Part shown: positions 20,808 through 33,913 of the stretch, piece after piece | Position numbering within the stretch: position 1 is the stretch's first letter | Layout of the letters: every line of letters begins with the position of its first letter | Made by a program: the position numbers and the translations under genes | Virus record (IMG/VR): IMGVR_UViG_3300027906_000002 | Span: 32,001-96,000 of that record | Length of the DNA: 64,000 nucleotides | Direction: 5' to 3' (one strand) | From: a virus | The notes under the pieces: generated by a model | Seen by the model: only the letters and a program-made list of their open reading frames with translations | Told to the model about the DNA's origin: nothing | Databases searched by the model: none

Positions 20808-20849
20808 CTGTCACATCTATAGACAAAGAGGGTAACTATCTGCTATACT
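20808..20849 (+). promoter_or_regulatory. Early sigma70-type promoter with a palindrome half-site
   Basis: CTGTCACA (20808-15), TAGACA (20820-25), 18 nt, TG-c-TATACT (20844-49). Marks the start of the early block. Confidence 0.7.
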
Positions 20850-20871
20850 AGCGAAGTATTAGAGCAGAAAG

Positions 20872-21105
20872 ATGCCCTCATTTTATTTACAATCCATTGA
20901 TGATAATGGAGCAACGACAACGAAATCATTTGAATCAAGTTATCTCGATGAGGTAGTAGAGAATATAGATGATTTTCTTAGAGGTTCTGGATTTGCCTAT
21001 GATGAGTTGCAACTTATTAAAAGTTCTACTTCTGATGAAACAACTAAGTCATTTCTAAGGGAACAGGTAAATGAGTATCGGAGAACACAGTCATCAGTTG
21101 ACTAA
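20872..21105 (+). CDS. Hypothetical protein, 77 aa
   Basis: Track ORF directly after the early promoter. Confidence 0.75.
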   Translation: MPSFYLQSIDDNGATTTKSFESSYLDEVVENIDDFLRGSGFAYDELQLIKSSTSDETTKSFLREQVNEYRRTQSSVD

Positions 21106-21150
21106 TCTGCATACATAAATTGTAGTCTATTAAATTGCACAGACAAACTC

Positions 21151-21330
21151 ATGGGTAAGACTTATAGGCGTGGTGGTGCTGAAAGAGGTTATTCCTCACC
21201 AGGTAAATCACTACGAGATAAGAGACAACGGGGTACAAACAGATCCGAATTTAGAGAAGGTAGTAATGACAATTATAAGAACAAAATTAAACCTAAAAAT
21301 GACTATGAGGATCAACAACAATGGACTTAG
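21151..21330 (+). CDS. Basic hypothetical protein, 59 aa (not in track)
   Basis: MGKTYRRGGAERGYSSPGKSLRDKRQRG...EDQQQWT. Confidence 0.65.
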   Translation: MGKTYRRGGAERGYSSPGKSLRDKRQRGTNRSEFREGSNDNYKNKIKPKNDYEDQQQWT

Positions 21331-21470
21331 ACAAAAATAAAATACCAGGAGTTGATGTATCAAATCAATCACCTGGTTTGTTACCTGAATCATTTTATGA
21401 TGATGATGACTTAGAGTATGATGATGCTTCACTAGATGGAGTAGAAATAGAATACACAACATCATTGTAA
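21321..21470 (+). CDS. Acidic hypothetical protein, 49 aa (not in track)
   Basis: MDLDKNKIPGVDVSNQSPGLLPESFYDDDDLEYDDASLDGVEIEYTTSL; TAATG coupling. Confidence 0.6.
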   Translation: MDLDKNKIPGVDVSNQSPGLLPESFYDDDDLEYDDASLDGVEIEYTTSL

Positions 21471-21775
21471 TGGAAGACACTAAACAGGAAAAATGGGAAC
21501 GTGGTAAGACTCTTATGCTAGAGTCTTTACATAAACCTGATGACAGATTGAGAGGATGTGCTCACAATCAAAAGTGCTATCACGAATTACTTGAAATAAG
21601 AGATCAAGTAATTGAAATGGTAAGAGGGATACCTAATCCTCATGCAGAAGCATTAGCATTTGGTAAGGTTAATTCACTTCCAAATCCTACAGTCACAACA
21701 CCTAACGGTGATATTAGTGAAACTTTAATGAGTGGAGCATTGGGTGATTATTATGCAGATAAGAGGGAGTATTAA
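21470..21775 (+). CDS. Hypothetical protein, 101 aa
   Basis: Track ORF in a coupled series. Confidence 0.75.
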   Translation: MEDTKQEKWERGKTLMLESLHKPDDRLRGCAHNQKCYHELLEIRDQVIEMVRGIPNPHAEALAFGKVNSLPNPTVTTPNGDISETLMSGALGDYYADKREY

Positions 21776-21777
21776 TA

Positions 21778-21975
21778 ATGAATATTGATTTGCCTGAATG
21801 TATATTATTAAATGATAGTGAGAAGCAACTACTAAAGGATGCTTTCTTATCATACATGAAGGAACTAGAGATAAAGACAAAGAAAGAGAAAATGTTAACT
21901 GCTGAAGCATATCAGGAGGTTAGATATCAACTTGAGGATATGATACAGAAATTACATTTAGGGTATGGCAGTTAA
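21778..21975 (+). CDS. Hypothetical protein, 65 aa
   Basis: Track ORF with GGAG RBS. Confidence 0.7.
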   Translation: MNIDLPECILLNDSEKQLLKDAFLSYMKELEIKTKKEKMLTAEAYQEVRYQLEDMIQKLHLGYGS

Positions 21976-22022
21976 CTAAGTGGCACATGACCTCATGTCA
22001 TCACATGGGGTTCATGTATAAT
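21964..22022 (+). promoter_or_regulatory. Early promoter with 24 bp palindromic element
   Basis: TATGGCAG-ttaactaa-GTGGCACA (21964-87); TG-TATAAT (22017-22). Confidence 0.8.
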
Positions 22023-22028
22023 AGTATT

Positions 22029-22637
22029 ATGAAATTACAATTCCCACCTAAACTCGTTGAGGCAGTTCATTACCTCAATCAATTAACCATTCAAGTGAGT
22101 GAATCACATGAGGATGGTAGAGTTAATAGTATTGATGATGAAGATACTATTATAGATCTTCTCATTGAAAGATATGGTGATAATGTAGAAAAACCTAAAG
22201 CAAGATGTTGGTGGGATCTTAAACTATTTGGATACCCTACTAATATTAAATCATCTAAGTTTGGAAGTGCAGCAGATAATTTCTCATCTAAAGCAGCAAT
22301 ATTATATGCACTAACTGATATTCCAGAGGAGGATGTTACATGTACATCATGGAAGAGTTTTCAAACTAAACTAAAAGAGAACTCATCACAATCAACACCA
22401 AGAGATTATTATATAATTGTACTCAATAAGGTAACTGGTGTTGTATATTTACAATCACTCAAATCATTGAGTAAACTAACATCTAATGGTAATAACCTAC
22501 CATTTCAGATTAAGTGGAGAGATAATATACATCCTGTACAAAGAGACTATTTACAATCATATGATTTTCTGGTAGAATACTACAAGGAATCAGTACGCAA
22601 GAAAATTACATCACATGATGGATTTGAAGAACTGTAA
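22029..22637 (+). CDS. Putative Type II restriction endonuclease (PD-(D/E)XK-like)
   Basis: ATG 22029 follows the -10 box (the track start 21987 lies upstream of the promoter). Acidic helix 'SIDDEDTI' plus 'WWDL...PTNIKSS' D...x-I-K pattern; overlaps a methyltransferase gene. Confidence 0.55.
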   Translation: MKLQFPPKLVEAVHYLNQLTIQVSESHEDGRVNSIDDEDTIIDLLIERYGDNVEKPKARCWWDLKLFGYPTNIKSSKFGSAADNFSSKAAILYALTDIPEEDVTCTSWKSFQTKLKENSSQSTPRDYYIIVLNKVTGVVYLQSLKSLSKLTSNGNNLPFQIKWRDNIHPVQRDYLQSYDFLVEYYKESVRKKITSHDGFEEL

Positions 22638-23391
22638 ATTACACCAAGGCGATTGTTTAGAATTAATGAAGGAGATACCAGATGAGTCTATTGACTTTAT
22701 CTGTTGTGATCCACCATACGGTACTACATCTATTAAATGGGATTCAGTCCTAGATTATAATAAATTGTGGGAACAATATGGTAGGATAATTAAACCTAAA
22801 GGTATTATATGTTTGTTTGGTTCTCAACCATTTACATCTCAATTAATATGTTCTAAGATAGATTGGTTTAGGTATGAGATTATATGGAATAAGAATAAGT
22901 GTGGATCACCAGGTCTTGCAAAGAAGAGACCAATGAAAGTGCATGAGAATATATTAATATTCTATAAAAATGCTGGTGGTACATATAATCCTCAAATGAC
23001 TAAAGGAGAACCATTTAAAAGAGTGAGTAAGAACCCAGAAGGTTATGTAGGTAAGAAGAATGACCACAATTATGGTATGAAACCACGCAAAGAGTTTGAG
23101 AATAAGGGTACAAGATATCCTAAATCAATTGTTAACATCTCTAGAGATTTTAGTGCTCAACAACAGGTACATCCAACACAGAAACCAGTACCATTAATGG
23201 AGTGGTTAATTAAAACATACTCCAATGAAGGTGAAACTGTATTAGATAATTGTATGGGTTCAGGTTCAACTGGAGTAGCAGCAATTAAATTAAATAGATC
23301 TTTCATAGGTATTGACACATCACCAGAATATGTTAGAATATCTAATGAAAGAATCGAATCAATCCCACTAGATTTAACTAAAATACTATGA
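22615..23391 (+). CDS. DNA N6-adenine/N4-cytosine methyltransferase (beta class)
   Basis: Motif IV 'CCDPPYG', 'HPTQKPVPLMEWLI', motif I 'VLDNCMGSGSTG'. Confidence 0.93.
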   Translation: MMDLKNCKLHQGDCLELMKEIPDESIDFICCDPPYGTTSIKWDSVLDYNKLWEQYGRIIKPKGIICLFGSQPFTSQLICSKIDWFRYEIIWNKNKCGSPGLAKKRPMKVHENILIFYKNAGGTYNPQMTKGEPFKRVSKNPEGYVGKKNDHNYGMKPRKEFENKGTRYPKSIVNISRDFSAQQQVHPTQKPVPLMEWLIKTYSNEGETVLDNCMGSGSTGVAAIKLNRSFIGIDTSPEYVRISNERIESIPLDLTKIL

Positions 23392-24581
23392 ATACAGATA
23401 TGACTGGATTACATGAAGAATTTGGTGTAGATATACCAACAGCACCAGAGATTGATCCTAACCAATGTTTCAATGAAGAGTTATTAAAGTCTTTTAAAGA
23501 TACAATAGATCAACAACCTCATTTACATGTTAATACTATACTGGGTAGTTATGCTACAGTTGTACCAGATAGTAACAATCAAATTTATCCTCAATTAATA
23601 TGGATTGATGAGATACATGATTTAGAGTCAATTAGGAATACTATAACAGGAGAAGTGAGACCAAGAGGATGGCAAATAAGAGATGGAGAAGATGTTAACG
23701 AAGATTGTGTTAATGATTATCATCAAGATATAGTTAATAAGGAATGGGTTCCTACACACATGTGTGGTTGTGTATTTGAATTGGAAGATGGGTGGTATAG
23801 TGTATCAAGTAGAGGTGTAAAACGTAAGTATGGTGTTGCTAATTTACATCATAGATTAAAAGCAGCAGCAGAAGCAGGTGAAGATTATATTATTGCATGG
23901 GTAATAAAATTTAAAGATCTTAGATTATTAGCAGAGTGGGCATGTGCTGAAGCAAATAGGAATAAGTATACTTCTAATCCTAGAAAAGATAATGATATTG
24001 TTAGAGCAATTCAAGAGCAATTAACATGGGAGTCAGAACTTAAGATTGCATTAGATAATGCTGAAGAAGATGGAGAAGAGAAAACAAAAATAATAGTTAA
24101 CAAACTTAAATTATTTCATCTTCATGGAAATACTATCAATGGTTTAGTTAGAAAGTTAGAAAGTGTCGGTGTATTTACAGGAGATAGGAGAAGAAGAAGT
24201 GCAGAAGATATTGATAAATGGTTTGAAGATAATTTACCTAGTTGGAAGAAAACAGGTCAAAATGAATATTTAAATGACCAAGGTGTAACAGTTAAAGTTG
24301 TACAAAATATGGGTAACAATCATTTTGCAACTGCTGGTTATCTTGCAGATCAGATACTTGCTGATATCCCACATATAATAATTACTTCTGATAGTTCAGG
24401 TAAAGAAAAACTTCCAACTGATGTATTACAATACAGAAAAGGACATTTAAGTGATGCTTATAAACATATTGATAAGATGGGTGAAGTAAGAGATCTACTT
24501 AGATCAGGTAAAGCACGATTAGCAACACAATATAATCTTCCTGGATTAAATAATGAAGATACATTAATCTACATTCCATAA
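23388..24581 (+). CDS. ParB/Srx-like domain protein
   Basis: 'YGVANLHHRLKAAAEAGEDYIIAWV' resembles the ParB/Srx (G)xHR-x2-A-A motif; ATGA overlap with the methyltransferase. Confidence 0.5.
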   Translation: MNTDMTGLHEEFGVDIPTAPEIDPNQCFNEELLKSFKDTIDQQPHLHVNTILGSYATVVPDSNNQIYPQLIWIDEIHDLESIRNTITGEVRPRGWQIRDGEDVNEDCVNDYHQDIVNKEWVPTHMCGCVFELEDGWYSVSSRGVKRKYGVANLHHRLKAAAEAGEDYIIAWVIKFKDLRLLAEWACAEANRNKYTSNPRKDNDIVRAIQEQLTWESELKIALDNAEEDGEEKTKIIVNKLKLFHLHGNTINGLVRKLESVGVFTGDRRRRSAEDIDKWFEDNLPSWKKTGQNEYLNDQGVTVKVVQNMGNNHFATAGYLADQILADIPHIIITSDSSGKEKLPTDVLQYRKGHLSDAYKHIDKMGEVRDLLRSGKARLATQYNLPGLNNEDTLIYIP

Positions 24582-24640
24582 TGTGACACCTAACATAGTG
24601 TCACAGTAAACTACCATTTCATTCTATACTATAGTATATT
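24582..24640 (+). promoter_or_regulatory. Early promoter with perfect 24 bp palindromic element
   Basis: TGTGACAC-ctaacata-GTGTCACA (24582-605); -10 candidates TATACT 24625, TATAGT 24630, TATATT 24635. Confidence 0.8.
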
Positions 24641-24646
24641 AACAAT

Positions 24647-24847
24647 ATGAGAAAATTCTTTTCTCCCGATCAACAAATCAAGTTGATTAAAAATGCTTTG
24701 AAAAAAGCAGAACAAGGTTCCGTTCTTTATAATGATGATGAACTCATCAAATTAAAGACATCACTTAATAAATTGCGTGATGAGAAGGAACAAACTAGGA
24801 AACTACTCAACCGAGGATTTGGTTATGACAAAGAAACTAACAGTTGA
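24647..24847 (+). CDS. Hypothetical protein, 66 aa
   Basis: Track ORF directly after the promoter. Confidence 0.75.
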   Translation: MRKFFSPDQQIKLIKNALKKAEQGSVLYNDDELIKLKTSLNKLRDEKEQTRKLLNRGFGYDKETNS

Positions 24848-24953
24848 TTACGATCAAAAGTATGACAATTGTCAGGAAAATGAGGATGATTGGGTATCAT
24901 CAGTTATAGGAACTGAAGATGATGCAATCTATGACATTCTGGATCAATTATGA
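24825..24953 (+). CDS. Acidic hypothetical protein, 42 aa (not in track)
   Basis: MTKKLTVDYDQKYDNCQENEDDWVSSVIGTEDDAIYDILDQL; GAGGA RBS, ATGA overlap. Confidence 0.6.
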   Translation: MTKKLTVDYDQKYDNCQENEDDWVSSVIGTEDDAIYDILDQL

Positions 24954-25318
24954 ATACTTGGGAAGTCACATTACAACGTGAAAATGGTATCAACAAGACA
25001 GTAATTGTTGATGATTGTATGTATGAAAGTGAAGCAGAATTGCTTGCTGAATCACAATATGGACTTCCAGTTTTAAAAGTATTATATAAAGGACAATCAG
25101 ATGTTTGGGGTATGAGTAATAAAGATGGTAATGATTACATTTGGTATGATTTACCTAGACGGAGAGCAAGAGGGGGAAAAAATGTAGATATAGATGGTCT
25201 ATTTGGAGTGATGATGATTATACCTGCACTTGCCACACTTGTTATTATTATTGAGTATTGGTTACCAATACTTATTATTACATGTGGTGTAGGTGCATTT
25301 ATGTCATTCAAGAAATAG
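24950..25318 (+). CDS. Hypothetical protein with hydrophobic C-terminal segments
   Basis: 122 aa, ends 'LFGVMMIIPALATLVIIIEYWLPILIITCGVGAFMSFKK'. Confidence 0.7.
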   Translation: MNTWEVTLQRENGINKTVIVDDCMYESEAELLAESQYGLPVLKVLYKGQSDVWGMSNKDGNDYIWYDLPRRRARGGKNVDIDGLFGVMMIIPALATLVIIIEYWLPILIITCGVGAFMSFKK

Positions 25319-25363
25319 GCATTTATATTTGTTAACTTAAGGTGTTCAATTCATCACAAATGT

Positions 25364-25371
25364 TATAAATA
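25364..25371 (+). promoter_or_regulatory. T4-type late promoter inside the early block
   Basis: Perfect TATAAATA in an intergenic region. Confidence 0.65.
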
Positions 25372-25396
25372 ATGATAGTCACCGAAAGGTACAGTT

Positions 25397-25455
25397 AGGA
25401 GTAACAAGATGCACTGAAACCTCATTTATTATGAGTTTAATGTATACAAGGAGGT
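25397..25455 (+). promoter_or_regulatory. Leader with SD-preceded minimal uORF (ATG-CAC-TGA) and hairpin before a strong SD
   Basis: AGGAG 25397-401, ATG CAC TGA 25409-17, hairpin CTCAT/ATGAG 25421-35, AAGGAGGT 25448-55. Confidence 0.5.
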
Positions 25456-25459
25456 CTAA

Positions 25460-25624
25460 TTGTCCAACAGTTTAATTTCATTCAATCAAATGGCATTTTG
25501 GAAACATGGAACAGATGATACTTCTCAAGATGAGAAGATAGATGAGTACTTTGAATGTCTAATTGATTGCGATACAAACGACCAAAATAGTTGTAGGAGG
25601 GTATGTTCAGAGTTATTAGTTTAA
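25460..25624 (+). CDS. Small twin-Cx3C protein, 54 aa (not in track)
   Basis: TTG start after AAGGAGGT; MSNSLISFNQMAFWK...DEYFECLIDCDTNDQNSCRRVCSELLV. Confidence 0.8.
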   Translation: MSNSLISFNQMAFWKHGTDDTSQDEKIDEYFECLIDCDTNDQNSCRRVCSELLV

Positions 25625-25648
25625 GGGACAATTAACAACAATTAAGTT

Positions 25649-25676
25649 AAAAGAGGGTTGCAAAACCCTCTTTTTT
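25649..25676 (+). terminator. Intrinsic terminator overlapping the next promoter's -35
   Basis: AAAAGAGGGTT-gcaa-AACCCTCTTTTTT. Confidence 0.8.
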
Positions 25677-25686
25677 AATGTATAAT
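25658..25686 (+). promoter_or_regulatory. Early sigma70 promoter
   Basis: TTGCAA-17 nt-TATAAT with TG extension. Confidence 0.8.
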
Positions 25687-25692
25687 AGGTAC

Positions 25693-26661
25693 ATGAAAGA
25701 TACTATTCTATTTGGAGATTGTCGTAAGACGTTATCAGCGTTCTTACCAAATAGTGCTCGTATGTGTGTAACATCACCACCATATTACGGACTAAGAGAT
25801 TATGGTGGAGAAGATAATCAAATAGGATTAGAACAATCACCAGAAGAATATGTTAACGAGATGGTGAAAGTATTCAGAGAAGTTAGAAATATATTGACTG
25901 ATGATGGAACACTATGGTTAAACATAGGTGATAGTTATTACAACTATCGTCCTGGTAAGGGTGCTAATTACCCTAAGCAAAGTGTTAGTGAGACTAGACA
26001 AGATCTACCCACTAATAGTAACAAACGTGCTAACAAATTAGAGGGACTAAAAGAGAAGGATCTAATTGGTATTCCTTGGATGTTAGCATTTGCATTAAGA
26101 GCAGATGGATGGTACTTAAGGCAAGATATTATATGGCATAAACCTAATCCAATGCCTGAAAGTGTGCGTGATAGATGTACTAAAGCACATGAATATATCT
26201 TCTTGTTGAGTAAGAATAAGCATTACTATTATGATAATGAGAGTATAAAAGAACCTGCTAAAGATTGGGGTACTCGTGATAGATCTAAGGGGAAATATCA
26301 CAATGAAGGTACAGGTTTATCACCTCATACTGGTCTCACTAAATCATATCCAACAAAGAACAAACGTAGTGTATGGAGTATAACTAAGAGACCATATAAG
26401 GGTGCTCATTTTGCTACTTTCCCACCTGAATTAATCACACCATGTATACTTGCAGGTTCAGCACTAAATGATACTATCCTCGACCCATTTATGGGTAGTG
26501 GTACAACAGCAGCAGTGGCAAAATCATTAGGTAGGTATTACATAGGGTGTGAATTACATGAGGATTATGGTCATTTAATAGAGGAGAGAGTACGAGAATA
26601 CCATGTGACACCTGACAAAGAGGCACACAACCCACTGACAACACTGCTGAATGATGTATAA
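25693..26661 (+). CDS. DNA N4-cytosine/N6-adenine methyltransferase (beta class), solitary
   Basis: Motif IV 'VTSPPYYG', 'HFATFPPELI', motif I 'ILDPFMGSGTT'; ATG 25693 follows the -10 box. Confidence 0.93.
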   Translation: MKDTILFGDCRKTLSAFLPNSARMCVTSPPYYGLRDYGGEDNQIGLEQSPEEYVNEMVKVFREVRNILTDDGTLWLNIGDSYYNYRPGKGANYPKQSVSETRQDLPTNSNKRANKLEGLKEKDLIGIPWMLAFALRADGWYLRQDIIWHKPNPMPESVRDRCTKAHEYIFLLSKNKHYYYDNESIKEPAKDWGTRDRSKGKYHNEGTGLSPHTGLTKSYPTKNKRSVWSITKRPYKGAHFATFPPELITPCILAGSALNDTILDPFMGSGTTAAVAKSLGRYYIGCELHEDYGHLIEERVREYHVTPDKEAHNPLTTLLNDV

Positions 26662-26662
26662 T
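26604..26662 (+). promoter_or_regulatory. Early promoter with 24 bp palindromic element, inside the methyltransferase 3' end
   Basis: TGTGACAC-ctgacaaa-GAGGCACA (26604-27); TG-TATAAT (26657-62). Confidence 0.78.
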
Positions 26663-26846: not shown

Positions 26847-27137
26847 ATGCCAACTGCAACACCTCGTAAGACTTCAACTGCAACACCACGCAAGAGAAGA
26901 ACACGCAAGGCAACTGCAAAGAAAGTAACACCAACTCCACTAAATACAACAGTCGAAACTAAACTCAATGGAGATCCTATTGTGACTGAAACTGTTAACA
27001 ATGAAGTGAAAGTTGATGTGAAAAGAAGAAACCTAACCGAGTTAAATGGTCTTGAGTTAGTAATACTTCCTCTAGTATATCTTGAGGGATTTGTTAAACT
27101 AATCCTAAAAGAGACTGGAGTATTAGAAACAGTGTGA
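26847..27137 (+). CDS. Basic protein with TPRK repeats (possible nucleic-acid binder)
   Basis: 10 K/R and no acidic residue in the first 27 aa; 'TATPRK' twice; hydrophobic C-terminal segment. Confidence 0.7.
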   Translation: MPTATPRKTSTATPRKRRTRKATAKKVTPTPLNTTVETKLNGDPIVTETVNNEVKVDVKRRNLTELNGLELVILPLVYLEGFVKLILKETGVLETV

Positions 27138-27192
27138 CAGTTAAACAACCTACACACTGAGACCCCATAAGGGGTCTTTTTTTGTGTATAAT
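27133..27192 (+). promoter_or_regulatory. Early promoter with palindromic element
   Basis: TGTGACAG-ttaaacaa-CCTACACA (27133-56); TG-TATAAT (27187-92). Confidence 0.75.
27160..27183 (+). terminator. Intrinsic terminator inside the promoter
   Basis: AGACCCC-ataa-GGGGTCT followed by a T-run. Confidence 0.8.
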
Positions 27193-27216: not shown

Positions 27217-28467
27217 TTGAAAGACGCATTGAGACCACACCAGCAGAGAGCATATGATAAGATGACCACTGAGAATTCAGGTCAGATTATTATACCTACT
27301 GGTGGTGGCAAAACATTCATTATGATAGCAGATTGTCATAGATTAGTAACAACAACTCCTCGTAGTCCTCAGACTATTGTTGTAGTTGCACCACGCATAT
27401 TGCTTGCTAATCAGTTATCTAACGAGTTTGAATCTGCACTTCCTGATGTTAAGATAGCACATGTACATTCTGGTGAAACTCATCATTTTAGTACAACAGA
27501 TCACAGGTTTTTAACACATTGGGGTTGCTCTAATCCTCAGTATGATAAGTTAATCTTTACCACCTATCATTCACTCCACAGAGTATTAGATAGCATGGTA
27601 AATATCAACAGAATATACTTTGATGAGGCACACAATGGCACTAGCAAAGTATTCTTTAAGCAGATAAAGAGAATCGCTGAGTTACAAATACCACGCTTCT
27701 TCTTTACTGCTACACCACGCATTTCACGCTCTAAGAATAGTATTAGTGCGGAACGTGGTATGAACAATGCGGAGATATATGGTGAAAAGTTAGAAGAAAC
27801 ATCTGCTAAGGAGTTAATAGATAGTGGCACTATCTTATACCCTAAAGTTATACCATTTGAGACCGATAGAGAGCGTACTAAACAGAACGCACATGAGGTT
27901 GATAGTGATAACTTAAAGGACATACTTAACTCCTTAACTGATAACAATCCAAAGGTACTTGTGAGTGCTCCAACAACAAGAATCATGTGGAATATGCTAT
28001 CACAAACTGATATTCAGTCATGGTTATTAGAGCATGATTATAACATCATGCACATCACATCTAAACATGGTGCTGTTATCAATGGTAAGAAAGTAGGAAG
28101 GGAAAAGTTCTTCCAAACCCTTACAGATTGGGGCAAAGATGATAACAAAAGGTTTGTAATCTTCCACTATAGTATACTATCAGAAGGCATAAATGTTCCT
28201 GGTTTGACTCATTCAATCATGCTTAGAAACTTACCTACCATTGAAATGGCACAGACAATAGGTAGAGTTATCAGGATACATGAGAAGGATAGAGTATCAA
28301 TGAAGGATGGTAAGATACCTGCTGGTCAGTATAACTTATACCATAAAAGTCATGGTCAAATTGTTGTACCTATGACTGGTAAGTATGGTCAAAGAATAGC
28401 AGATAGATTGAAATCTATTGTTTCATATATCTTTATAGAGGGTATTCCACCAAGAGCATACGTCTAG
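27217..28467 (+). CDS. SF2 DEAH-box helicase (Res-subunit-like, no nuclease domain)
   Basis: Walker A 'IPTGGGKT', 'FDEAH', 'TATP', 'ILSEGINVP', 'QTIGRVIR'; 416 aa, TTG start. Confidence 0.9.
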   Translation: MKDALRPHQQRAYDKMTTENSGQIIIPTGGGKTFIMIADCHRLVTTTPRSPQTIVVVAPRILLANQLSNEFESALPDVKIAHVHSGETHHFSTTDHRFLTHWGCSNPQYDKLIFTTYHSLHRVLDSMVNINRIYFDEAHNGTSKVFFKQIKRIAELQIPRFFFTATPRISRSKNSISAERGMNNAEIYGEKLEETSAKELIDSGTILYPKVIPFETDRERTKQNAHEVDSDNLKDILNSLTDNNPKVLVSAPTTRIMWNMLSQTDIQSWLLEHDYNIMHITSKHGAVINGKKVGREKFFQTLTDWGKDDNKRFVIFHYSILSEGINVPGLTHSIMLRNLPTIEMAQTIGRVIRIHEKDRVSMKDGKIPAGQYNLYHKSHGQIVVPMTGKYGQRIADRLKSIVSYIFIEGIPPRAYV

Positions 28468-28525
28468 TGTGCCAGTCTGTAAACTGCACACTATTCTCCC
28501 CACTGCCTCTAAAATGACCTATAAT
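28468..28525 (+). promoter_or_regulatory. Early promoter with palindromic element (23 bp variant)
   Basis: TGTGCCAG-tctgtaaa-CTGCACA (28468-90); TATAAT (28520-25). Confidence 0.75.
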
Positions 28526-28552: not shown

Positions 28553-28882
28553 ATGACAGTCTCCAACCTATCTCAAACAGCACGAGTTGAAATGTGGGTT
28601 TTGGATTTGGTAGATGCACTTGAAGCAAACTACACAAGTCGTTACCCTGATTCACCTAATCCTGTAAAGTTTGAAACTAAGGTAGGTAAGAAGTACATCA
28701 AAATTATTCAAGTTGATGGAGGTGTTCATGCTTTCATTGATAAGAATACAGGTGAAGTTTATAAACCTGCATCTTGGAAATCACCAGCAAAGCACGTTAG
28801 ATATGATTTAAGGATCATTAATCAACGTCAAGAGTGTTATTCAAGAGCAGATTGGGCAGGTGGTTATCTTTACATAAGATAA
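28553..28882 (+). CDS. Phage hypothetical protein, 109 aa
   Basis: ATG 28553 lies after the promoter; 'GKKYIKI...VHAFIDKNTGEVYKPASWKSPAKHVRY...WAGGYLY'. Confidence 0.8.
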   Translation: MTVSNLSQTARVEMWVLDLVDALEANYTSRYPDSPNPVKFETKVGKKYIKIIQVDGGVHAFIDKNTGEVYKPASWKSPAKHVRYDLRIINQRQECYSRADWAGGYLYIR

Positions 28883-28891
28883 TCAATCATT

Positions 28892-28919: not shown

Positions 28920-28945
28920 TTGTAAATTTACTTTCTCACTTTATC

Positions 28946-29047: not shown

Positions 29048-29055
29048 TAACACTT

Positions 29056-29081
29056 AGGGGGGATCATTTCCCCCCTTTTTT
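29056..29081 (+). terminator. Intrinsic terminator
   Basis: AGGGGGG-atcattt-CCCCCCT followed by a T-run. Confidence 0.8.
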
Positions 29082-29103
29082 ATCACCCATTTGTTAAATA
29101 ACT

Positions 29104-29238
29104 ATGAACACATCAATCCGTTATTGGTTCCCTGATACCAGACAGTGCAGATATTTGTACTTTAAAACATACCAACAGGCACTAGATTGTATTGAATTGT
29201 TTAAACAAATCGAGGTAAGATCGGAGGTAATTGTATGA
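29104..29238 (+). CDS. Hypothetical protein, 44 aa (not in track)
   Basis: MNTSIRYWFPDTRQCRYLYFKTYQQALDCIELFKQIEVRSEVIV. Confidence 0.65.
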   Translation: MNTSIRYWFPDTRQCRYLYFKTYQQALDCIELFKQIEVRSEVIV

Positions 29239-29399
29239 CTGAACCATACACAATTGAAACGAGTTGTTATACAATAGACTTTACAAATAGGAAGGCATAT
29301 GAAGATGTATTGAAGGAATGTGAGAGACTAAGTGTTAATATGGATTACTACTTCTTAGAGTTTGACACAACAGACACCGAACCAGAAGCATATATGTGA
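29235..29399 (+). CDS. Hypothetical protein, 54 aa (not in track)
   Basis: GGAGG RBS, ATGA overlap; MTEPYTIETSCYTIDF...EPEAYM. Confidence 0.65.
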   Translation: MTEPYTIETSCYTIDFTNRKAYEDVLKECERLSVNMDYYFLEFDTTDTEPEAYM

Positions 29400-29454
29400 C
29401 AGTTAACTAAGTTGCACACTAAACCCCCATTTTGGGGGTTTTATCGTTTATAAT
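29395..29454 (+). promoter_or_regulatory. Early promoter with palindromic element
   Basis: TGTGACAG-ttaactaa-GTTGCACA (29395-418); TATAAT (29449-54). Confidence 0.8.
29421..29442 (+). terminator. Hairpin/terminator inside the promoter
   Basis: AAACCCCC-atttt-GGGGGTTT-T. Confidence 0.7.
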
Positions 29455-29479
29455 AAGAATGTTCAAACGAATTCAACCC

Positions 29480-29599
29480 ATGAACACAAATCTTTCAAAA
29501 GAAGTGTATGAGCAGTTGTTGAACCCAACTCCAACAATTCGTTATTACTTCTTATCAAACTTAACAACCAAATCTACAACTAAGGGAGGTAAAAAGTAA
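29480..29599 (+). CDS. Micro-protein, 39 aa (not in track)
   Basis: MNTNLSKEVYEQLLNPTPTIRYYFLSNLTTKSTTKGGKK; TAATG coupling. Confidence 0.55.
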   Translation: MNTNLSKEVYEQLLNPTPTIRYYFLSNLTTKSTTKGGKK

Positions 29600-29838
29600 T
29601 GAATAACTTACAAGAATTCATTGATTATGTGTGGAGTTTCTATAACCCACAATCTGACCTTTACCCTATTAAAGGTTTAACAAAGAACGACATATTAGAG
29701 GCAAGTTGGTTATACTTGCAGATGTGTTGTTATCCATCAATGCCCGAATATACTTGGGGTGATGGTGATAGTTTAGATAGAGAACATGTAAGAGATATTT
29801 TACTACAGAGTCCTCAATTTTCCTTTGGAGGTGCATGA
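29599..29838 (+). CDS. Hypothetical protein, 79 aa
   Basis: GGAGG RBS; track ORF. Confidence 0.75.
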   Translation: MNNLQEFIDYVWSFYNPQSDLYPIKGLTKNDILEASWLYLQMCCYPSMPEYTWGDGDSLDREHVRDILLQSPQFSFGGA

Positions 29839-29996
29839 CTAACATCACAAGATACACTCGTGCTGGTAAGAATGGGAAGCAAATTGCATGTCCTAAATGT
29901 GAATCAGTACGAACAGTTTATCACTTCAACTTCTCAGGATTAACATGTCCTGATTGTAAACAATCCATCACCAAATATGACTGGAGGTTAGCATGA
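29835..29996 (+). CDS. Zn-ribbon micro-protein, 53 aa (not in track)
   Basis: Two CxxC knuckles: 'IACPKCES...LTCPDCKQ'; GGAGG RBS. Confidence 0.75.
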   Translation: MTNITRYTRAGKNGKQIACPKCESVRTVYHFNFSGLTCPDCKQSITKYDWRLA

Positions 29997-30127
29997 AACT
30001 ATTCCTCTTAATCATCATCGGATTATTATTATATAACTCCGAAGATTCTCGTTATTTTATTAGTGACCAACTACAAAATGCGAGTGAGTTTGTAAGACCA
30101 GAACCAACAATCCAAGTGAGGTACTAA
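29993..30127 (+). CDS. Small protein with N-terminal hydrophobic segment, 44 aa (not in track)
   Basis: MKLFLLIIIGLLLYNSEDSRYF...; GGAGG RBS. Confidence 0.65.
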   Translation: MKLFLLIIIGLLLYNSEDSRYFISDQLQNASEFVRPEPTIQVRY

Positions 30128-30128
30128 C

Positions 30129-30434
30129 ATGAACTACAGACAATCTGCAAATCCAAATGCAACAAATAGTGAGTTAGATGCTAAGAAGATAGTATATCCT
30201 AGCATCCCTAATTGTGAGTTGCCAGTATCACTAACTGAAGAACAAATCTCCACGATTCTTTATATCATGGAGGGATATATTGTAAATTCAGATGATACTA
30301 ATGATGAGCAATTTAATAATGATGTTGATGACATCTTTGAGAAGTTAGAGACCGCAGTTGATATACACTATGCGGAATTAGACGCACTATGTAACACTAA
30401 CCCTGAACCATTCATTCCTACTTTCCATGACTAA
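30129..30434 (+). CDS. Acidic hypothetical protein, 101 aa
   Basis: Track ORF, GAGG RBS. Confidence 0.7.
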   Translation: MNYRQSANPNATNSELDAKKIVYPSIPNCELPVSLTEEQISTILYIMEGYIVNSDDTNDEQFNNDVDDIFEKLETAVDIHYAELDALCNTNPEPFIPTFHD

Positions 30435-30684
30435 TTCATCCCCTAAAGTATCATTCACACCAGATCAAAAGAGAGAACTAATTGAACAGTATGCTGAACT
30501 CTTAGTTGATAACATGGATCCTAAAACTCTTGCACAATATGTGTATGAAGACCTCGTATATACATACGAACAATCATCATCACAAGAGTTAAAAGAGCAG
30601 ATAGATGATTATGACCCTGAGTTATTTGATGAGTTACTTGATAACGTAACCGCACCAAGTGTGAGTCTAAATGTAATTAAATAA
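30427..30684 (+). CDS. Acidic hypothetical protein, 85 aa
   Basis: Track ORF overlapping the previous stop. Confidence 0.75.
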   Translation: MTNSSPKVSFTPDQKRELIEQYAELLVDNMDPKTLAQYVYEDLVYTYEQSSSQELKEQIDDYDPELFDELLDNVTAPSVSLNVIK

Positions 30685-30698
30685 GAGTCAAGACATAG

Positions 30699-30758
30699 TG
30701 TGTCAGTTTACATACTGGCACACATTTTTCCCATATGGGGTGGTTGTGTGTGTATAAT
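30699..30758 (+). promoter_or_regulatory. Early promoter with palindromic element
   Basis: TGTGTCAG-tttacata-CTGGCACA (30699-722); TG-TATAAT (30753-58). Confidence 0.8.
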
Positions 30759-30782
30759 AGGTATATACACGAAAGAACTCTT

Positions 30783-30992
30783 ATGTCAAAAACTCAAACC
30801 ATCATCAACAGAATTCTAGAAGTTGAGAACTTCCAGAATGTCGCTTGCGTATGTGCTGACTGGTCTGAGTTTGTACAAGAACTAAGCGAGTGGGGTGTTT
30901 ATGGGTGTGCTAAGATCGATTTCTTAGATGCTGATCTAGACATCCCAACACTTGATAAGTTCATGGTAACCGAAAACGGTTACATCAGATAA
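30783..30992 (+). CDS. Hypothetical protein, 69 aa
   Basis: ATG 30783 is downstream of the promoter; the track start 30735 lies inside it. Confidence 0.75.
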   Translation: MSKTQTIINRILEVENFQNVACVCADWSEFVQELSEWGVYGCAKIDFLDADLDIPTLDKFMVTENGYIR

Positions 30993-30996
30993 ACCC

Positions 30997-31056
30997 TGTG
31001 GCAGTCTAGGAAGTGGCACAAGGTCGCTTGATTTATGCCCCAATCTGTGCTATATT
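30997..31056 (+). promoter_or_regulatory. Early promoter with palindromic element
   Basis: TGTGGCAG-tctaggaa-GTGGCACA (30997-31020); TTGATT (31028-33), 17 nt, TATATT (31051-56). Confidence 0.82.
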
Positions 31057-31119
31057 AAGTACATAATCAAGGAAGACCAAATTTCTTGATCTCCAGAACA
31101 AACATTCAATTTCAAAATT

Positions 31120-31422
31120 ATGTCAAAATCTTTATTTCAACAATCCATCAACCTATGTGAAGACTACTTAGGTTTTGAGTGGTCACAAGGTGTTCGCACC
31201 TCTATCTTCGATTCTTACAGACGTGAGAACGATTTAGATCCTAGTCTTTCAATCTACCATTACGGTGGAGACCGTTTCGAGGTTCGTTCTATGAACTATT
31301 CTGATTCAACTGGTTGCATTGTAGGCGATCAGGTCGATCTTGGTTCTTTTGATAACATCTACGATGCACAAGATTGTGCCGAAGATTATCTAAAAGATCT
31401 ACTATTAAACCTCGGTGTTTAA
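31120..31422 (+). CDS. Hypothetical protein, 100 aa
   Basis: Track ORF. Confidence 0.75.
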   Translation: MSKSLFQQSINLCEDYLGFEWSQGVRTSIFDSYRRENDLDPSLSIYHYGGDRFEVRSMNYSDSTGCIVGDQVDLGSFDNIYDAQDCAEDYLKDLLLNLGV

Positions 31423-31453
31423 TAGTTACCAGCACACATTACAGAGTTTTATT

Positions 31454-31714
31454 ATGCAACTTTCTTCTAAATCTGGTCACATGGTTAGTGACTACTACCC
31501 TGTAAAAACACGTAACGGTGTTAAACAGTATGATAGAGTTCTCAGAATTCTAACATTTATGGGACAAACTATGTCCAAAAGAATTATGACTACTCAACAG
31601 TATGTCAATGAAGTTTATGACAAAATCCATCAATTTGAGTACGTTGATAACAACGTAGATCACTCAAATATGTGGCAGTTTGTATCATCTACGGAGGTAA
31701 CTTACCATGTATAG
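31454..31714 (+). CDS. Hypothetical protein, 86 aa
   Basis: ATG 31454 preferred over the track's GTG 31415. Confidence 0.7.
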   Translation: MQLSSKSGHMVSDYYPVKTRNGVKQYDRVLRILTFMGQTMSKRIMTTQQYVNEVYDKIHQFEYVDNNVDHSNMWQFVSSTEVTYHV

Positions 31715-31934
31715 TAGTGATGCTTTCGGTAGAATCTTCTGGGTTGATGATAACTTCGATTTCAAATCATGCCCACTATGTGTAGATGGGACTGGTGATT
31801 TTGACTGTGAAGATTATGTATCAGACTGGACAGATTGGGAGGGAGTTAATATGAGTTTGCTCTTCCAAATACACAAGACTTGTTTACATTTAAAGCAAGA
31901 TCATTCTAACTCAATATCATTAGTAGGAGTTTAA
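31707..31934 (+). CDS. Hypothetical protein, 75 aa
   Basis: GGAGG RBS; track ORF. Confidence 0.75.
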   Translation: MYSSDAFGRIFWVDDNFDFKSCPLCVDGTGDFDCEDYVSDWTDWEGVNMSLLFQIHKTCLHLKQDHSNSISLVGV

Positions 31935-31939
31935 TTATT

Positions 31940-32068
31940 ATGTCATGTATTCAAAATGAAGAACTATTAGAAACAATCTATGAGGAACTTGCAGAAGAGT
32001 TTCCATTACTTAGTGACCAAGAATTACACGATTTAACTGTTGCTAAGTTTGAAGATATGTCCCACTAA
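31940..32068 (+). CDS. Acidic micro-protein, 42 aa (not in track)
   Basis: AGGAG RBS; MSCIQNEELLETIYEELAEEFPLLSDQELHDLTVAKFEDMSH. Confidence 0.7.
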   Translation: MSCIQNEELLETIYEELAEEFPLLSDQELHDLTVAKFEDMSH

Positions 32069-32113
32069 ATGTGGATCAAACGCCCGATTTTTTGCCCTCT
32101 CGCTATTAACCAA

Positions 32114-32332
32114 ATGACACAACTTGAAAAGGACATTGCATTTTGCATTGATGAATGTGAGATGTCAAATGAACAAATAGGTGACATATTACGTTGTTGT
32201 GAGAATTTAGGAGGCATACCTGTGGAATACTTTGCAGAGGAATTTGTCTTCCTAAGTGATAACGACACTAAGGTACATGATGATGATTACTTAAACATTG
32301 CTGAGTTTAATTCTATGTACTGGGAGGCATAA
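32114..32332 (+). CDS. Acidic hypothetical protein, about 72 aa
   Basis: Same frame as track ORF 32069; start uncertain (32069 or 32114). Confidence 0.65.
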   Translation: MTQLEKDIAFCIDECEMSNEQIGDILRCCENLGGIPVEYFAEEFVFLSDNDTKVHDDDYLNIAEFNSMYWEA

Positions 32333-32334
32333 AT

Positions 32335-32652
32335 ATGGACGTAATCATCACTCCTGATTATCAACAACGACACCCTAATCCCCCTATGCCAGTATATCGA
32401 GATTACGAAATCACTATTAATTTGAATGAATTAGTAGAACATTCTATCCCACTATGTGATGTCAGACATCCTGACCATTGTTTAACATCAGACCAGATAG
32501 ATGAACTCGCTCATTGTTTGCGAGGAGAGTTAGATTTCACCCCTATCTTTAATCAAGCATACGCAATTATTAAGGAGTATGTTACTAAGAGTGGCACAGA
32601 ATTGCCGAGTGAAAATAACAATCAACTAGACAAACATTTGCACTATAAGTAA
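32335..32652 (+). CDS. Hypothetical protein, 105 aa
   Basis: GGAGG RBS; track ORF. Confidence 0.7.
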   Translation: MDVIITPDYQQRHPNPPMPVYRDYEITINLNELVEHSIPLCDVRHPDHCLTSDQIDELAHCLRGELDFTPIFNQAYAIIKEYVTKSGTELPSENNNQLDKHLHYK

Positions 32653-32673
32653 TAACAACAGTATCTTACTATT

Positions 32674-32907
32674 ATGCAACCAATTATCCTAATTCAGTGG
32701 AATACATTAACAACTGGTTGGGATAGTTATGTAAATACATTCTCATCTAATGAACAAATGACCTACCTTGACTTGTTAACAACTCTGGAAAACTTGCCAG
32801 AGGAAGAGTTACTTAAACCAGTAACATTGTATGACGAAGATGTAAATGACTATTTGAAAGTTAGACGAGTTGAACAGAAAGAATTCGACACATATTTAAT
32901 CATCTGA
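32674..32907 (+). CDS. Hypothetical protein, 77 aa
   Basis: Track ORF. Confidence 0.6.
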   Translation: MQPIILIQWNTLTTGWDSYVNTFSSNEQMTYLDLLTTLENLPEEELLKPVTLYDEDVNDYLKVRRVEQKEFDTYLII

Positions 32908-32995
32908 TTATGACTTATGATGATATGATTAACATCAACTCACATATAATAATGTTGATGATTATGCTCTCTAGTTAACACTCACTTCTAAACAA

Positions 32996-33181
32996 ATGCA
33001 GTATAAAGTATATGATTCTAAAGACAAATTACATGGCACGTTTGAATCAGTTTTAGATCTCGAATTGTACATGGATGCTGTTAGAAACTCTAGGGGAGAA
33101 AGGTATAAAGATTTACCTAAACATTCGTGCTTTGATTATATCAAATCTATCGGATGGTTTATGGACATTGTTGACAATTAG
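32996..33181 (+). CDS. Hypothetical protein, 61 aa
   Basis: Track ORF. Confidence 0.7.
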   Translation: MQYKVYDSKDKLHGTFESVLDLELYMDAVRNSRGERYKDLPKHSCFDYIKSIGWFMDIVDN

Positions 33182-33194
33182 TGGGGTTAATCAT

Positions 33195-33473
33195 ATGCGA
33201 TTCAATGACTTTAAGAAAGGACAAATTGTCCGTTTTAAAGATGAAGTAGGAGAGGTTAATTTCATTGACAAAATGTACATAACTCTTACACTGCATAGGT
33301 GGAAGAAACCCCCAGAATTAGCAGAAGGTAGTTGTTACCCATATGGAGAAGTTAACCTGCTATGTAACAATAAATACTGGGATGATTTGGAGTTGTTAAA
33401 TGATACGGAAGACACACAAGATAGTGCCGCTATGTATAAATCACAAGAGGGAAGATATGGAGACGTACAATGA
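33195..33473 (+). CDS. Hypothetical protein, 92 aa (possible SH3-like N-terminus)
   Basis: ATG 33195; 'FKKGQIVRFKDEVGEVNFI'. Confidence 0.7.
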   Translation: MRFNDFKKGQIVRFKDEVGEVNFIDKMYITLTLHRWKKPPELAEGSCYPYGEVNLLCNNKYWDDLELLNDTEDTQDSAAMYKSQEGRYGDVQ

Positions 33474-33634
33474 TAGATAACGAGAACAAAGAGTATGACT
33501 TGAATGTTACTCACGGAGAACAGATTAACTATGTGTTTATAACACTTAAGGAGTTAATCGTTATGCAATGGGAACACATCAGAGAACACAGATTATGGAC
33601 ACTATTTAACACCCCTGTGGAAAAGATTGACTAA
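33470..33634 (+). CDS. Hypothetical protein, 54 aa (not in track)
   Basis: ATGA overlap; MIDNENKEYDLNVTHGEQINYVF...VEKID. Confidence 0.55.
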   Translation: MIDNENKEYDLNVTHGEQINYVFITLKELIVMQWEHIREHRLWTLFNTPVEKID

Positions 33635-33703
33635 ATTGTGTAAAACAATTAAATGGTTAATTAAACTAGGTTGAGTGTTACTTACCTGTGGAAATGTGGA
33701 AAA
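33616..33703. other. Cluster of DnaA-box-like 9-mers (candidate replication origin)
   Basis: TGTGGAAAA 33616-24, TGTGTAAAA 33637-45, TGTGGAAAT 33687-95, TGTGGAAAA 33695-703 (reverse complement TTTTCCACA), with an AT-rich spacer. Confidence 0.5.
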
Positions 33704-33765
33704 CTAATACACTCTTAGCATACAATCTACCGACTGTCAAGTATAACGAGGATATCACAATATTC

Positions 33766-33794
33766 TTGCTAATTATCACAAATTATGGTATAAT
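33766..33794 (+). promoter_or_regulatory. Sigma70 promoter with no ORF of its own
   Basis: TTGCTA-17 nt-TG-TATAAT; degenerate half-site ATATCACA ends 30 nt before the -10. Confidence 0.7.
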
Positions 33795-33854
33795 TACCTT
33801 GTGAGAGGTTCAGAAACCCTTGGAGTATTTGCCCCCTATTGTTAACACATAGTA

Positions 33855-33913
33855 TGTGACAGTAGAGAAAGTGGCACACAGGTTGTTGTAAGTTGCCTCT
33901 GAGGGGTTATAAT
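33855..33913 (+). promoter_or_regulatory. Early promoter with palindromic element
   Basis: TGTGACAG-tagagaaa-GTGGCACA (33855-78); TATAAT (33908-13). Confidence 0.82.

Follow-up and report, generated by a model that had tools for sequence, protein, structure and literature searches.

The window analysed here, a stretch of 64,000 nucleotides from a T4-like cyanophage (positions 32,001 to 96,000 of the IMG/VR virus record IMGVR_UViG_3300027906_000002), carries between 20.8 and 33.9 kb nine full copies of a 24-bp palindrome with the consensus TGTGNCAGT-N6-ASTGNCACA, each set at an almost constant distance ahead of a -10 hexamer, together with two half or degenerate sites. The palindrome matches an element ahead of the Yfr2 RNA genes of cyanobacterial hosts, and the reading that we favour, with moderate confidence, is that these early promoters depend on an activator, that their site copies the upstream element of yfr2, and that its reader is a host regulator of the PlmA-type GntR class. 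The sites, and one ORF that has been considered as the source of a reader, are as follows.

20806..20849 (+): half-site promoter; proximal half-site AACTGTCACA at 20806-20815, 28-nt gap, -10 TATACT at 20844-20849; ATG at 20872
21964..22022 (+): palindrome 21964-21987, spacer hairpin of -12.4 kcal/mol, -10 TATAAT at 22017-22022; ATG at 22029 of a 202-aa gene without a Pfam family
24582..24640 (+): palindrome 24582-24605, -10 TATATT at 24635-24640; ATG at 24647 of a 66-aa gene, whose P-SSM7 orthologue likewise lies behind a palindrome
26604..26662 (+): palindrome 26604-26627, within the 3′ end of an N6_N4 DNA methylase gene (25678-26661), -10 TATAAT at 26657-26662, best -35 of the set (CTGACA); counterpart found in P-SSM7
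27133..27192 (+): palindrome 27133-27156 with a variant proximal half that is kept in P-SSM7 and P-SSM2, terminator hairpin and T-run at 27159-27185 in the place of the -35, -10 TATAAT at 27187-27192; leads to the helicase gene 27217-28467
28468..28525 (+): variant palindrome 28468-28491, proximal half one base short, -10 TATAAT at 28520-28525; ATG at 28553 of a DUF7717 protein
29395..29454 (+): palindrome 29395-29418, terminator hairpin and T-run at 29421-29448, -10 TATAAT at 29449-29454; leads a series of small ORFs at 29.4-30.7 kb
30699..30758 (+): perfect palindrome 30699-30722, weak hairpin, -10 TATAAT at 30753-30758; ATG at 30783 (69 aa; P-SSM7 protein 78% identical)
30997..31056 (+): palindrome 30997-31020, -10 TATATT at 31051-31056; ATG at 31120 (100 aa)
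33750..33794 (+): degenerate proximal half-site GGATATCACA at 33750-33759, 29-nt gap, -10 TATAAT at 33789-33794
33855..33913 (+): palindrome 33855-33878, -10 TATAAT at 33908-33913; ATG at 33945 (76 aa)
34631..34792 (+): AbrB-like ORF of 53 aa with a weak AbrB/MazE-like match, kept in P-SSM7

The nine sites had been named in an earlier note on this DNA, and their common palindrome is borne out: a pattern search with up to three mismatches recovered eight of them and missed only 28468, a variant that is one base short before the last CACA. This search gave 16 strand matches against 1.66 expected from shuffled sequence, a number reached by none of 100 shuffles. The scan of the full genome that the note had called for yielded a clean break, since ten sites in the 179,402 bp score 17 or more in a weight-matrix scan (the nine of the window and one at genome position 152633), followed by a half-site at genome position 19554 with a score of 15.0 and then by a background of at most 12.6. 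Beyond the ten full sites, the half-sites listed above and the one at 19554, the 179-kb genome holds no further match of comparable strength, and the structural blocks of the window are free of full sites, as had been claimed for the late blocks. The two lesser sites, reported at 20808 and 33752, are indeed proximal half-sites placed before a -10. Besides small ORFs, the genes behind the phage sites include those of a helicase and of a DUF7717 protein; gene content and relatives suggest that the genes behind the sites are early in this phage. The 711-aa gene behind the site at 152633 was considered as a subunit of RNR and rejected, being without a Pfam family.

The nine full sites are followed by TATAAT (seven) or TATATT (two), with a gap from the last base of the motif to the hexamer of 29-30 nt, or 28 nt at the shifted 28468 variant, which agrees with the 30-31 nt previously given when the count runs to the first base of the hexamer. 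Among 205 unique oriented sites of IMG/VR the gap is again 29 (120 sites), 30 (53) or 28 nt (27). In the promoters of this phage the palindrome has its centre some 54 bp before the presumed start. The -35 boxes of the phage promoters are poor (one to five of six positions matching), and because of this the proposed spacing of about 7 nt between motif and -35 cannot be discerned in this phage; it can be seen in relatives with a higher GC content and in promoters of the host. The sites belong to a single class of promoter, in which a two-fold symmetric, predicted protein-binding site stands at a fixed distance, and this supports the suggestion of a site for a dimer. Alternatively, the palindrome might work as a hairpin, in RNA or in a single strand, that for instance signals processing or termination of the transcript coming from upstream; a potential stem of 9 bp with a 6-nt loop just 3′ of stop codons speaks for this. 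The alternative is rejected for lack of covariation between paired positions: position 5 has A or C where its partner, position 20, has mostly G, and G predominates at both 8 and 17. Moreover, separate canonical terminators follow the palindromes at 27133 and 29395, and the constant spacing is the one to the -10 that follows, not the one to the preceding stop codon, which leaves this alternative barely credible.

Four of the nine spacers contain hairpins, three of them strong (-12.4, -13.8 and -13.4 kcal/mol) and one weak (-4.4 kcal/mol), and a T-run follows two of the three strong ones. These hairpins, the position of the sites next to the preceding stop codon and the order of the small genes 3′ of the helicase, which is scrambled with respect to P-SSM7, would suit the view that the repeats are mainly substrates for recombination, that is, portable promoter-terminator cassettes like the PeSLs of RB49/phi1, with no dedicated reader. 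In the comparison with this one relative, the promoter stays with its own downstream gene in three cases. Recombination, however, calls for homology and has no need of a consensus with two-fold symmetry whose spacer bases are free, and across the sites the arms are conserved in contrast to the variable spacer and N positions; furthermore, the same arms occur at single-copy sRNA promoters of the host, and PeSLs have an AT-rich upstream region in place of a palindrome. Cassette shuffling, as first proposed, is compatible with the hairpins and the scrambled order as a secondary property, but it leaves the conserved palindrome unexplained and is very improbable as the whole account. Shuffling and a dedicated reader are not exclusive and can both hold.

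The element is not new as a feature of phages and is common to all the T4-like cyanophages tested, so that the caution about novelty in the earlier note was right. Copies number 10 in P-SSM7, 15 in P-SSM2, 9 in S-PM2, 4 in P-SSM4 and 20 in S-CRM01, with 5 in Syn9 and 9 in P-TIM40 at up to three mismatches (reverse-pattern controls 0-1), and more than 100 stretches of IMG/VR carry it. In 2016, Doron and colleagues (ISME J 10:1437) reportedly described a ‘novel early regulatory element’ upstream of early genes of T4-like cyanophages (Syn9, P-TIM40), said to be conserved across genomes and metagenomes; they are not known to have named a binding protein. The palindrome is very probably this element, as we assume from its presence in the same two phages and its conservation in T4-like cyanophages. 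Sullivan 2010 makes no mention of the palindrome.

The element also extends to a different kind of phage. A complete Mic1-like siphophage of 96.8 kb, whose DNA polymerase is 96% identical to that of Mic1, has 35 copies, and the Microcystis siphophage Mic1 itself has about 48, all at 57.3-72.1 kb and confined to its experimentally early gene block. Promoter units lie 68-71 nt ahead of the start codons of Mic1 gp51, 52, 68, 69, 70, 71 and 73, all of which belong to the early class (Table S1, PMC11237433); the Mic1 transcriptome paper contains no promoter analysis. Conversely, HTVC008M, which belongs to the family of the present T4-like phage but has a SAR11 host, gave a single match with three mismatches, and T4, S-TIM5 and P-SSP7 gave matches at background level. 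The distribution of the element thus tracks the host and not the phage lineage, with the reservation that S-TIM5 and P-SSP7 share the hosts and lack the element, which counts against an explanation by PlmA.

This pattern bears on the possibility that a phage protein reads the site, either an activator delivered with the virion or an early/middle repressor that would turn early promoters off, for which the AbrB-like ORF at 34631 had been put forward. Early shut-off needs some mechanism, the ORF is kept in P-SSM7 with its weak AbrB/MazE match, and a small, fast-evolving protein might escape BLAST. Nevertheless, the two unrelated lineages have the site but no detectable DNA-binding protein in common, a reader gene shared by them having been sought and rejected: by BLASTP, the Mic1-like phage has no more in common with this one than PhoH and a weak RNR-like match. 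The Pfam match of the ORF is below threshold (E 3e-4), and the ORF has no BLASTP match (E<=1e-3) in the Mic1-like siphophage with its 35 copies. No GntR domain was found in either of these two complete phage genomes, the SAR11-infecting relative HTVC008M lacks the element, and uninfected cyanobacteria use it at their own yfr2 promoters. The AbrB-like ORF is accordingly not supported as the reader, and a phage protein in that role appears quite unlikely.

In 401 cyanobacterial genomes there are 11 intergenic near-perfect palindromes, and five of them lie 38-40 nt before a Cyano-1 (Yfr2) RNA. In an unbiased survey, 12 of 21 Cyano-1 genes of large-genome cyanobacteria showed the phage-type arrangement at 39-41 nt from the RNA, with a -35 and a -10 in between (binomial p 6e-12); phage sites and Cyano-1 promoters share an asymmetry too, in that the proximal half is often AAGTG. 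The yfr2 promoters of Prochlorococcus have the distal half-site in the same position, starting 64 nt ahead of the Cyano-1 model start, and a proximal-type half directly upstream of it, which together form the 22-nt CGRE1, and in other cyanobacteria the full palindromes have their end 40-41 nt ahead of that model start; the distal and proximal half-sites of the phage are the two halves of this 22-nt element of 29 HL Prochlorococcus yfr2 promoters. The two half-sites, of 9-10 bp, are the same in both elements, and so are the unconstrained base in their middle and the T at their flank. Their arrangement differs: in CGRE1 (21-22 nt) they are swapped and abutting, with outer GTTA/GTTG flanks 13-14 nt apart, whereas in the phage element (24 nt) they face inward across a 6-bp spacer, in the order found at yfr2 promoters of many large-genome cyanobacteria. 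Both elements stand upstream of a sigma-70-type promoter with the same distance from the distal half-site to the -10. CGRE1 promoters drive yfr2 and those of the phage drive protein-coding genes, the likeness being one of geometry. As to Yfr2-like RNAs carried by the phages themselves, no Rfam match in the window reached the gathering score, and neither the early region of Mic1 nor the block of the Mic1-like phage gave a Cyano-1 hit at E<=0.1.

No wider host regulon emerged in five picocyanobacterial genomes, where matches were at or below the reverse-pattern control, one recurring inside the RNase P RNA and the rest lying in coding DNA. A 24-mer identical in eight filamentous cyanobacteria was rejected as regulatory because it lies inside a gene of about 398 aa, presumably, by eye from its sequence, a class I aminoacyl-tRNA synthetase. 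The absence of other host sites here fits with the restriction of CGRE1 in MED4, where no other occurrence exists in the genome (PMC6778093). The CGRE1 literature found, namely the two Lambrecht papers, makes no link to phages.

Since the palindrome matches the element ahead of the host Yfr2 genes, PlmA, a host protein that the earlier note had left out of account, is the best candidate reader. PMM1637, a PlmA-family GntR protein of Prochlorococcus, binds CGRE1 in pull-down and EMSA experiments (PMC6191309, Lambrecht et al. 2018), loses this binding in the R50A mutant and acts as an activator in an E. coli reporter (PMC6191309). A single GntR gene is present in each Prochlorococcus genome, and the winged-helix domain of PlmA is 70-97% identical across cyanobacteria, with 24-26 of 27 core residues the same. 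Two observations count against it: the yfr5 promoter, which has the distal half-site only, is not shifted by PMM1637 (PMC6191309), and the proven site has half-sites swapped with respect to the phage, which puts its dyad 12 bp further upstream. Binding of PMM1637 to the phage arrangement is predicted, with an activating role there like the one it has at CGRE1. Another host factor, such as a different conserved DNA-binding protein of cyanobacteria or a part of RNA polymerase like the C-terminal domains of alpha, might read the phage-type arrangement, in which case the similar half-sites would belong to overlapping but distinct elements. The unlike arrangement speaks for it, as does the location of the element where an UP element would lie, and a host-dependent distribution fits any conserved host factor; however, the half-sites are those of CGRE1 down to the free base and flanking T, the yfr2 promoters are the sole host sites found, and, in contrast to UP elements, the element contains G+C and shows strict two-fold symmetry. 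The regulators of Prochlorococcus are, moreover, very few. On balance we hold another host factor to be unlikely.

Returning to PlmA, each promoter combines a good -10 with a -35 that is poor or missing and with the 24-bp two-fold symmetric site upstream, to which the single PlmA-type GntR of the host (PMM1637 in Prochlorococcus MED4) would bind as a dimer. Bound PlmA would recruit the host RNA polymerase, and therefore the phage gene set would fire right after DNA entry, without a phage protein; terminator hairpins in the otherwise unused -35/spacer region would insulate neighbouring cassettes. We give an even chance to the broader proposal that PlmA, a partner of the PII-PipX nitrogen/carbon module, is the immediate-early switch for at least two unrelated cyanophage lineages that copied the yfr2 promoter; these would be the T4-like cyanophages, marine and freshwater, and the Mic1-like siphophages of Microcystis. 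Through such copying, the start of infection would be wired to the light and nitrogen status of the host, and dozens of high-affinity phage sites may draw PlmA off yfr2.

Because purification, EMSA and reporter assays have been published for the candidate, what drives the early genes of T4-like cyanophages can be put to a direct test. Should PlmA be the reader, infection would hinge in its first step on a host regulator responsive to high light and nitrogen starvation, in hosts that include the most abundant phototrophs of the ocean and bloom-forming Microcystis; this would bear on how infection success varies with the environment, and would offer a portable, host-dependent promoter for cyanobacterial genetics. 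If it is not, the window still contributes a further phage example of promoters already known as a class.

With respect to known systems, the palindrome is neither a CRP (TGTGA-N6-TCACA) nor an NtcA site (GTA-N8-TAC, centred near -41.5), as had been stated, its outer arms being 16 bp apart and its centre near -54. The PeSL (promoter-early stem-loop) cassettes of the T4-type coliphages RB49/phi1 (Arbiol et al. 2010, PMC2839356) are similar in combining an intergenic early promoter with a terminator hairpin, which sometimes lies between where the -35 and the -10 stand, and in belonging to a plastic region with small ORFs, but they have a canonical -35 and AT-rich upstream DNA where the phage holds a weak -35 and a specific palindrome. 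As for T4 itself, we know of no MotA/AsiA system like that of T4 in T4-like cyanophages, and the upstream region of T4 early promoters is an A-rich UP element. T4 lacks the phage palindrome, and its early promoters have no site for a host transcription factor; as summarized in PMC5780444, they are sigma-70-like, surpass every bacterial promoter in strength and receive help from the injected Alt protein. The immediate-early transcription by unmodified host polymerase, boosted by upstream DNA, that is predicted for the promoters described here is a likeness to T4.

The window covers positions 32,001-96,000 of a 179,402-bp IMG/VR record, a complete genome of a T4-like cyanophage whose nearest isolate is Prochlorococcus phage P-SSM7 (about 80% nucleotide identity, only across the methylase-helicase stretch) and whose psbA shows 93% protein identity to that of Prochlorococcus MIT 1012. 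An earlier note had reported a repeated palindrome before promoters, made of two 9-bp arms around a 6-bp spacer. A search of the window with its consensus at up to three mismatches recovered eight of the nine full sites that it named and gave 16 strand matches against 1.66 expected, a number reached by none of 100 shuffles; the ninth, at 28468, is a variant of the element that lacks one base before the final CACA. A TATAAT-like hexamer follows every window site after 28-30 nt, and the two sites described as half or degenerate proved to be proximal half-sites (the arm nearer the promoter) that keep this spacing, at 28 and 29 nt. When a weight matrix made from the sites was run across the whole genome, ten sites scored 17-30, the nine in the window plus genome position 152633, and a half-site at genome position 19554 scored 15; the rest of the genome stayed at or below 12.6, cleanly separated from the sites. 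The sites, their spacing and the genome-wide scan thus bear out the original observation.

Outside the window, the tenth full palindrome (genome 152633-152656) is well separated from the putative early block, is followed by TATACT 29 nt later and by a second copy of the proximal half directly after the first, and stands immediately upstream of a 711-aa ORF with no Pfam family. The half-site promoter at genome 19554-19577, also outside the window, precedes a 136-aa ORF with a glycine-zipper 2TM domain (Rick_17kDa_Anti). Within the window, two N6_N4 DNA methylase genes (22615-23391 and 25678-26661) are 2.3 kb apart, and the palindrome at 26604 sits within the 3′ end of the second.

At the -35 positions of the window promoters only 1-5 of six bases match TTGACA, and GC-richer IMG/VR relatives carry a clear -35 (TTGACA or TTTACA) starting 7-8 nt past the palindrome. 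The spacer holds a hairpin in four window promoters, including a full intrinsic terminator with a T-run at 27133 and 29395. Such units, combining promoter and terminator, resemble the PeSL cassettes of RB49 and phi1, and the proposal that the sites are junctions of cassette shuffling stands in this part: compared with P-SSM7, the promoter stays with its downstream gene at three loci, and the small genes after the helicase occur in scrambled order. Shuffling leaves the conserved, two-fold symmetric arms unexplained, though, and may be a by-product of 60-bp units being repeated. In three phages (window 27133-27156; P-SSM7 40104; P-SSM2 58535) the proximal half of the helicase promoter deviates identically, reading AACCTNCACA, which suggests that a particular and perhaps weaker site is under selection.

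In IMG/VR, at least 120 stretches combine the palindrome with TATAAT at 28-33 nt, and the 495 matrix sites among the matches listed peak at gaps of 29 (192 sites), 30 (72) and 28 nt (31). Isolate phages were counted in the same terms as the window.

Palindrome sites in isolate cyanophages (up to three mismatches; reverse-pattern controls 0-2 throughout)
P-SSM7: 10 sites
Syn9: 5 sites
P-TIM40: 9 sites
P-SSM2: 15 sites
S-PM2: 9 sites
P-SSM4: 4 sites
S-CRM01 (freshwater): 20 sites, five of them perfect

At the same threshold, the Pelagibacter phage HTVC008M (one match, with three mismatches), T4 (two) and the T7-like cyanophage P-SSP7 (one) were at background level, and the cyanomyovirus S-TIM5 had no match. 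HTVC008M has a SAR11 host although its family assignment is that of the T4-like cyanophages; these four cases indicate that the element follows cyanobacterial hosts in certain phage lineages, and not phage ancestry.

One IMG/VR locus contained 33 sites within 8.8 kb. This locus belongs to a complete 96,796-bp genome (G010) with siphovirus-type tail genes, 35 sites (up to two mismatches), all at 80.1-92.0 kb, and a DNA polymerase that shows 96% identity to its counterpart in Microcystis phage Mic1; by BLASTP, the window phage and this Mic1-like phage share only PhoH and a weak RNR-like match. The Mic1 isolate itself (MN013189) has 48 matrix sites, all within 57.3-72.1 kb, in units of palindrome, 7 nt, TAGACA or TGGACA, 17 nt and CATAAT, which lie 68-71 nt upstream of the start codons of gp51, gp52, gp68, gp69, gp70, gp71 and gp73. 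A Mic1 time course, published with no promoter analysis, places gp49 and gp69-73 in class E1 and gp50-53, 65, 66 and 68, among others, in E2 (PMC11237433, main text and Table S1), so that all seven genes directly behind a unit are classed as early. The element thus stands before genes measured as early in a phage whose one feature in common with T4-like cyanophages is a cyanobacterial host. Tandem arrays of palindrome-promoter units with a 56-63-bp period, facing both directions, are also present (Mic1 65.9-72.1 kb; 80.1-85.2 kb in the Mic1-like genome G010), occupying stretches with no annotated genes, such as Mic1 67.4-69.5 kb.

In 205 unique sites from IMG/VR loci (among the matches listed), oriented by the -10 box, the arms are conserved apart from the fifth base of each, which varies freely, as do the six bases at the centre. 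Positions that would pair in a hairpin show no covariation: A or C at position 5 faces mostly G at position 20, and G predominates at both 8 and 17. The proximal half is better conserved than the distal one, farther from the promoter. By these alignments the palindrome reads as a protein site, not an RNA structure.

Five picocyanobacterial genomes had no excess of palindrome matches, and a recurrent match there was dismissed as part of RNase P RNA. Across 401 cyanobacterial genomes, 36 matches (up to one mismatch) were found against 8 for the reversed pattern; the 36 all lie in genomes of at least 3.3 Mb, and eight of them were set aside as one conserved 24-mer in coding DNA. Another 11 matches are intergenic, and five of these are followed after 38-40 nt by a Cyano-1 RNA gene (RF01701, the Yfr2 sRNA family). 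When above-threshold Cyano-1 genes of large-genome cyanobacteria were taken regardless of any palindrome, the highest-scoring matrix window lay 39-41 nt ahead of the start of the RNA in 12 of 21 (chance about 6e-12), with a -35 eight bases on and then a -10, and these upstream sites resemble the phage ones in the asymmetry of their proximal half. Among high-light Prochlorococcus, 29 yfr2 promoters have the distal half-site in that same position; in one promoter class a proximal-type half lies directly upstream of it, forming a 22-nt inverted repeat, and in the other the terminator of the preceding gene takes the place of the upstream half.

One yfr2 palindrome of a 4.8-Mb cyanobacterium (G224) equals the Mic1-like phage site G010 81234 in all 24 bases, spacer included. 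Near-perfect intergenic palindromes with no adjoining Cyano-1 RNA (cyanobacterial loci L234, L235, L236, L240 and L254) may be additional sites at which this reader acts in hosts. No palindrome stands upstream of the weak Cyano-1 matches in large-genome cyanobacteria (L323-L327, L336 and L337; 37-40 bits). Their common 5′ sequence is a different one with GAGGAGCGAACCAG at its end, and they probably represent another RNA, or a leader, that has the same anti-Yfr1-like motif.

The 22-nt repeat is the CGRE1 element of Lambrecht et al. 2018 (PMC6191309), with which it agrees in flanks, length, a one-base-shorter low-light form and the yfr5 upstream half disrupted by a terminator. The yfr2 promoter, and not its shuffled-motif version, pulled down PMM1637, the GntR-family PlmA regulator of MED4, which shifts the yfr2 and yfr4 promoters in EMSA, loses binding upon an R50A change and raises expression from both promoters in an E. 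coli reporter; a single half-site (yfr5) is insufficient for binding in vitro, and PlmA homologues are universal in, and restricted to, cyanobacteria (PMC6191309). CGRE1 occurs nowhere else in the MED4 genome (PMC6778093), in agreement with our host scans. A single GntR gene occurs in each Prochlorococcus genome searched; comparison of picocyanobacteria with two large-genome cyanobacteria gives 70-97% identity for its winged-helix domain and 24-26 matches among the 27 core residues. No GntR domain was found in the window phage or Mic1-like phage genomes.

Host PlmA is thus, on comparative grounds, the probable reader and activator of the candidate phage early promoters, although with considerable room for doubt. 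It would bind the palindrome centred near -54 and activate promoters having a good -10 but little -35, so that their genes would fire at once upon DNA entry and the unused spacer would be free to hold the terminator of the preceding cassette. Identical half-sites, the distal half-site at the same position and the use of the phage-type arrangement at yfr2 promoters of other cyanobacteria all argue for this binding. Its weak point is geometry, since in the proven PMM1637 site the same halves are swapped and abutting, with the dyad 12 bp (about one helical turn) farther upstream. The remaining probability falls to another host factor, to a phage protein (for instance a repressor responsible for shut-off) and to minor alternatives. 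The AbrB-like ORF (34631-34792), once proposed as the reader, has a sub-threshold Pfam match only, gave no BLASTP hit (E≤1e-3) against the Mic1-like phage, and is unnecessary in that role because hosts use the element in the absence of any phage.

As a phage feature the element is very probably already known, since its distribution fits a novel regulatory element that Doron et al. 2016 reportedly found to control the early genes of Syn9 and P-TIM40 and to be conserved among T4-like cyanophages; our literature search found no mention of its reach into Mic1-like siphophages. The promoter class is real and of a kind previously described for cyanophages, and the window adds one more phage to it; host PlmA offers a concrete, testable candidate for its reader.
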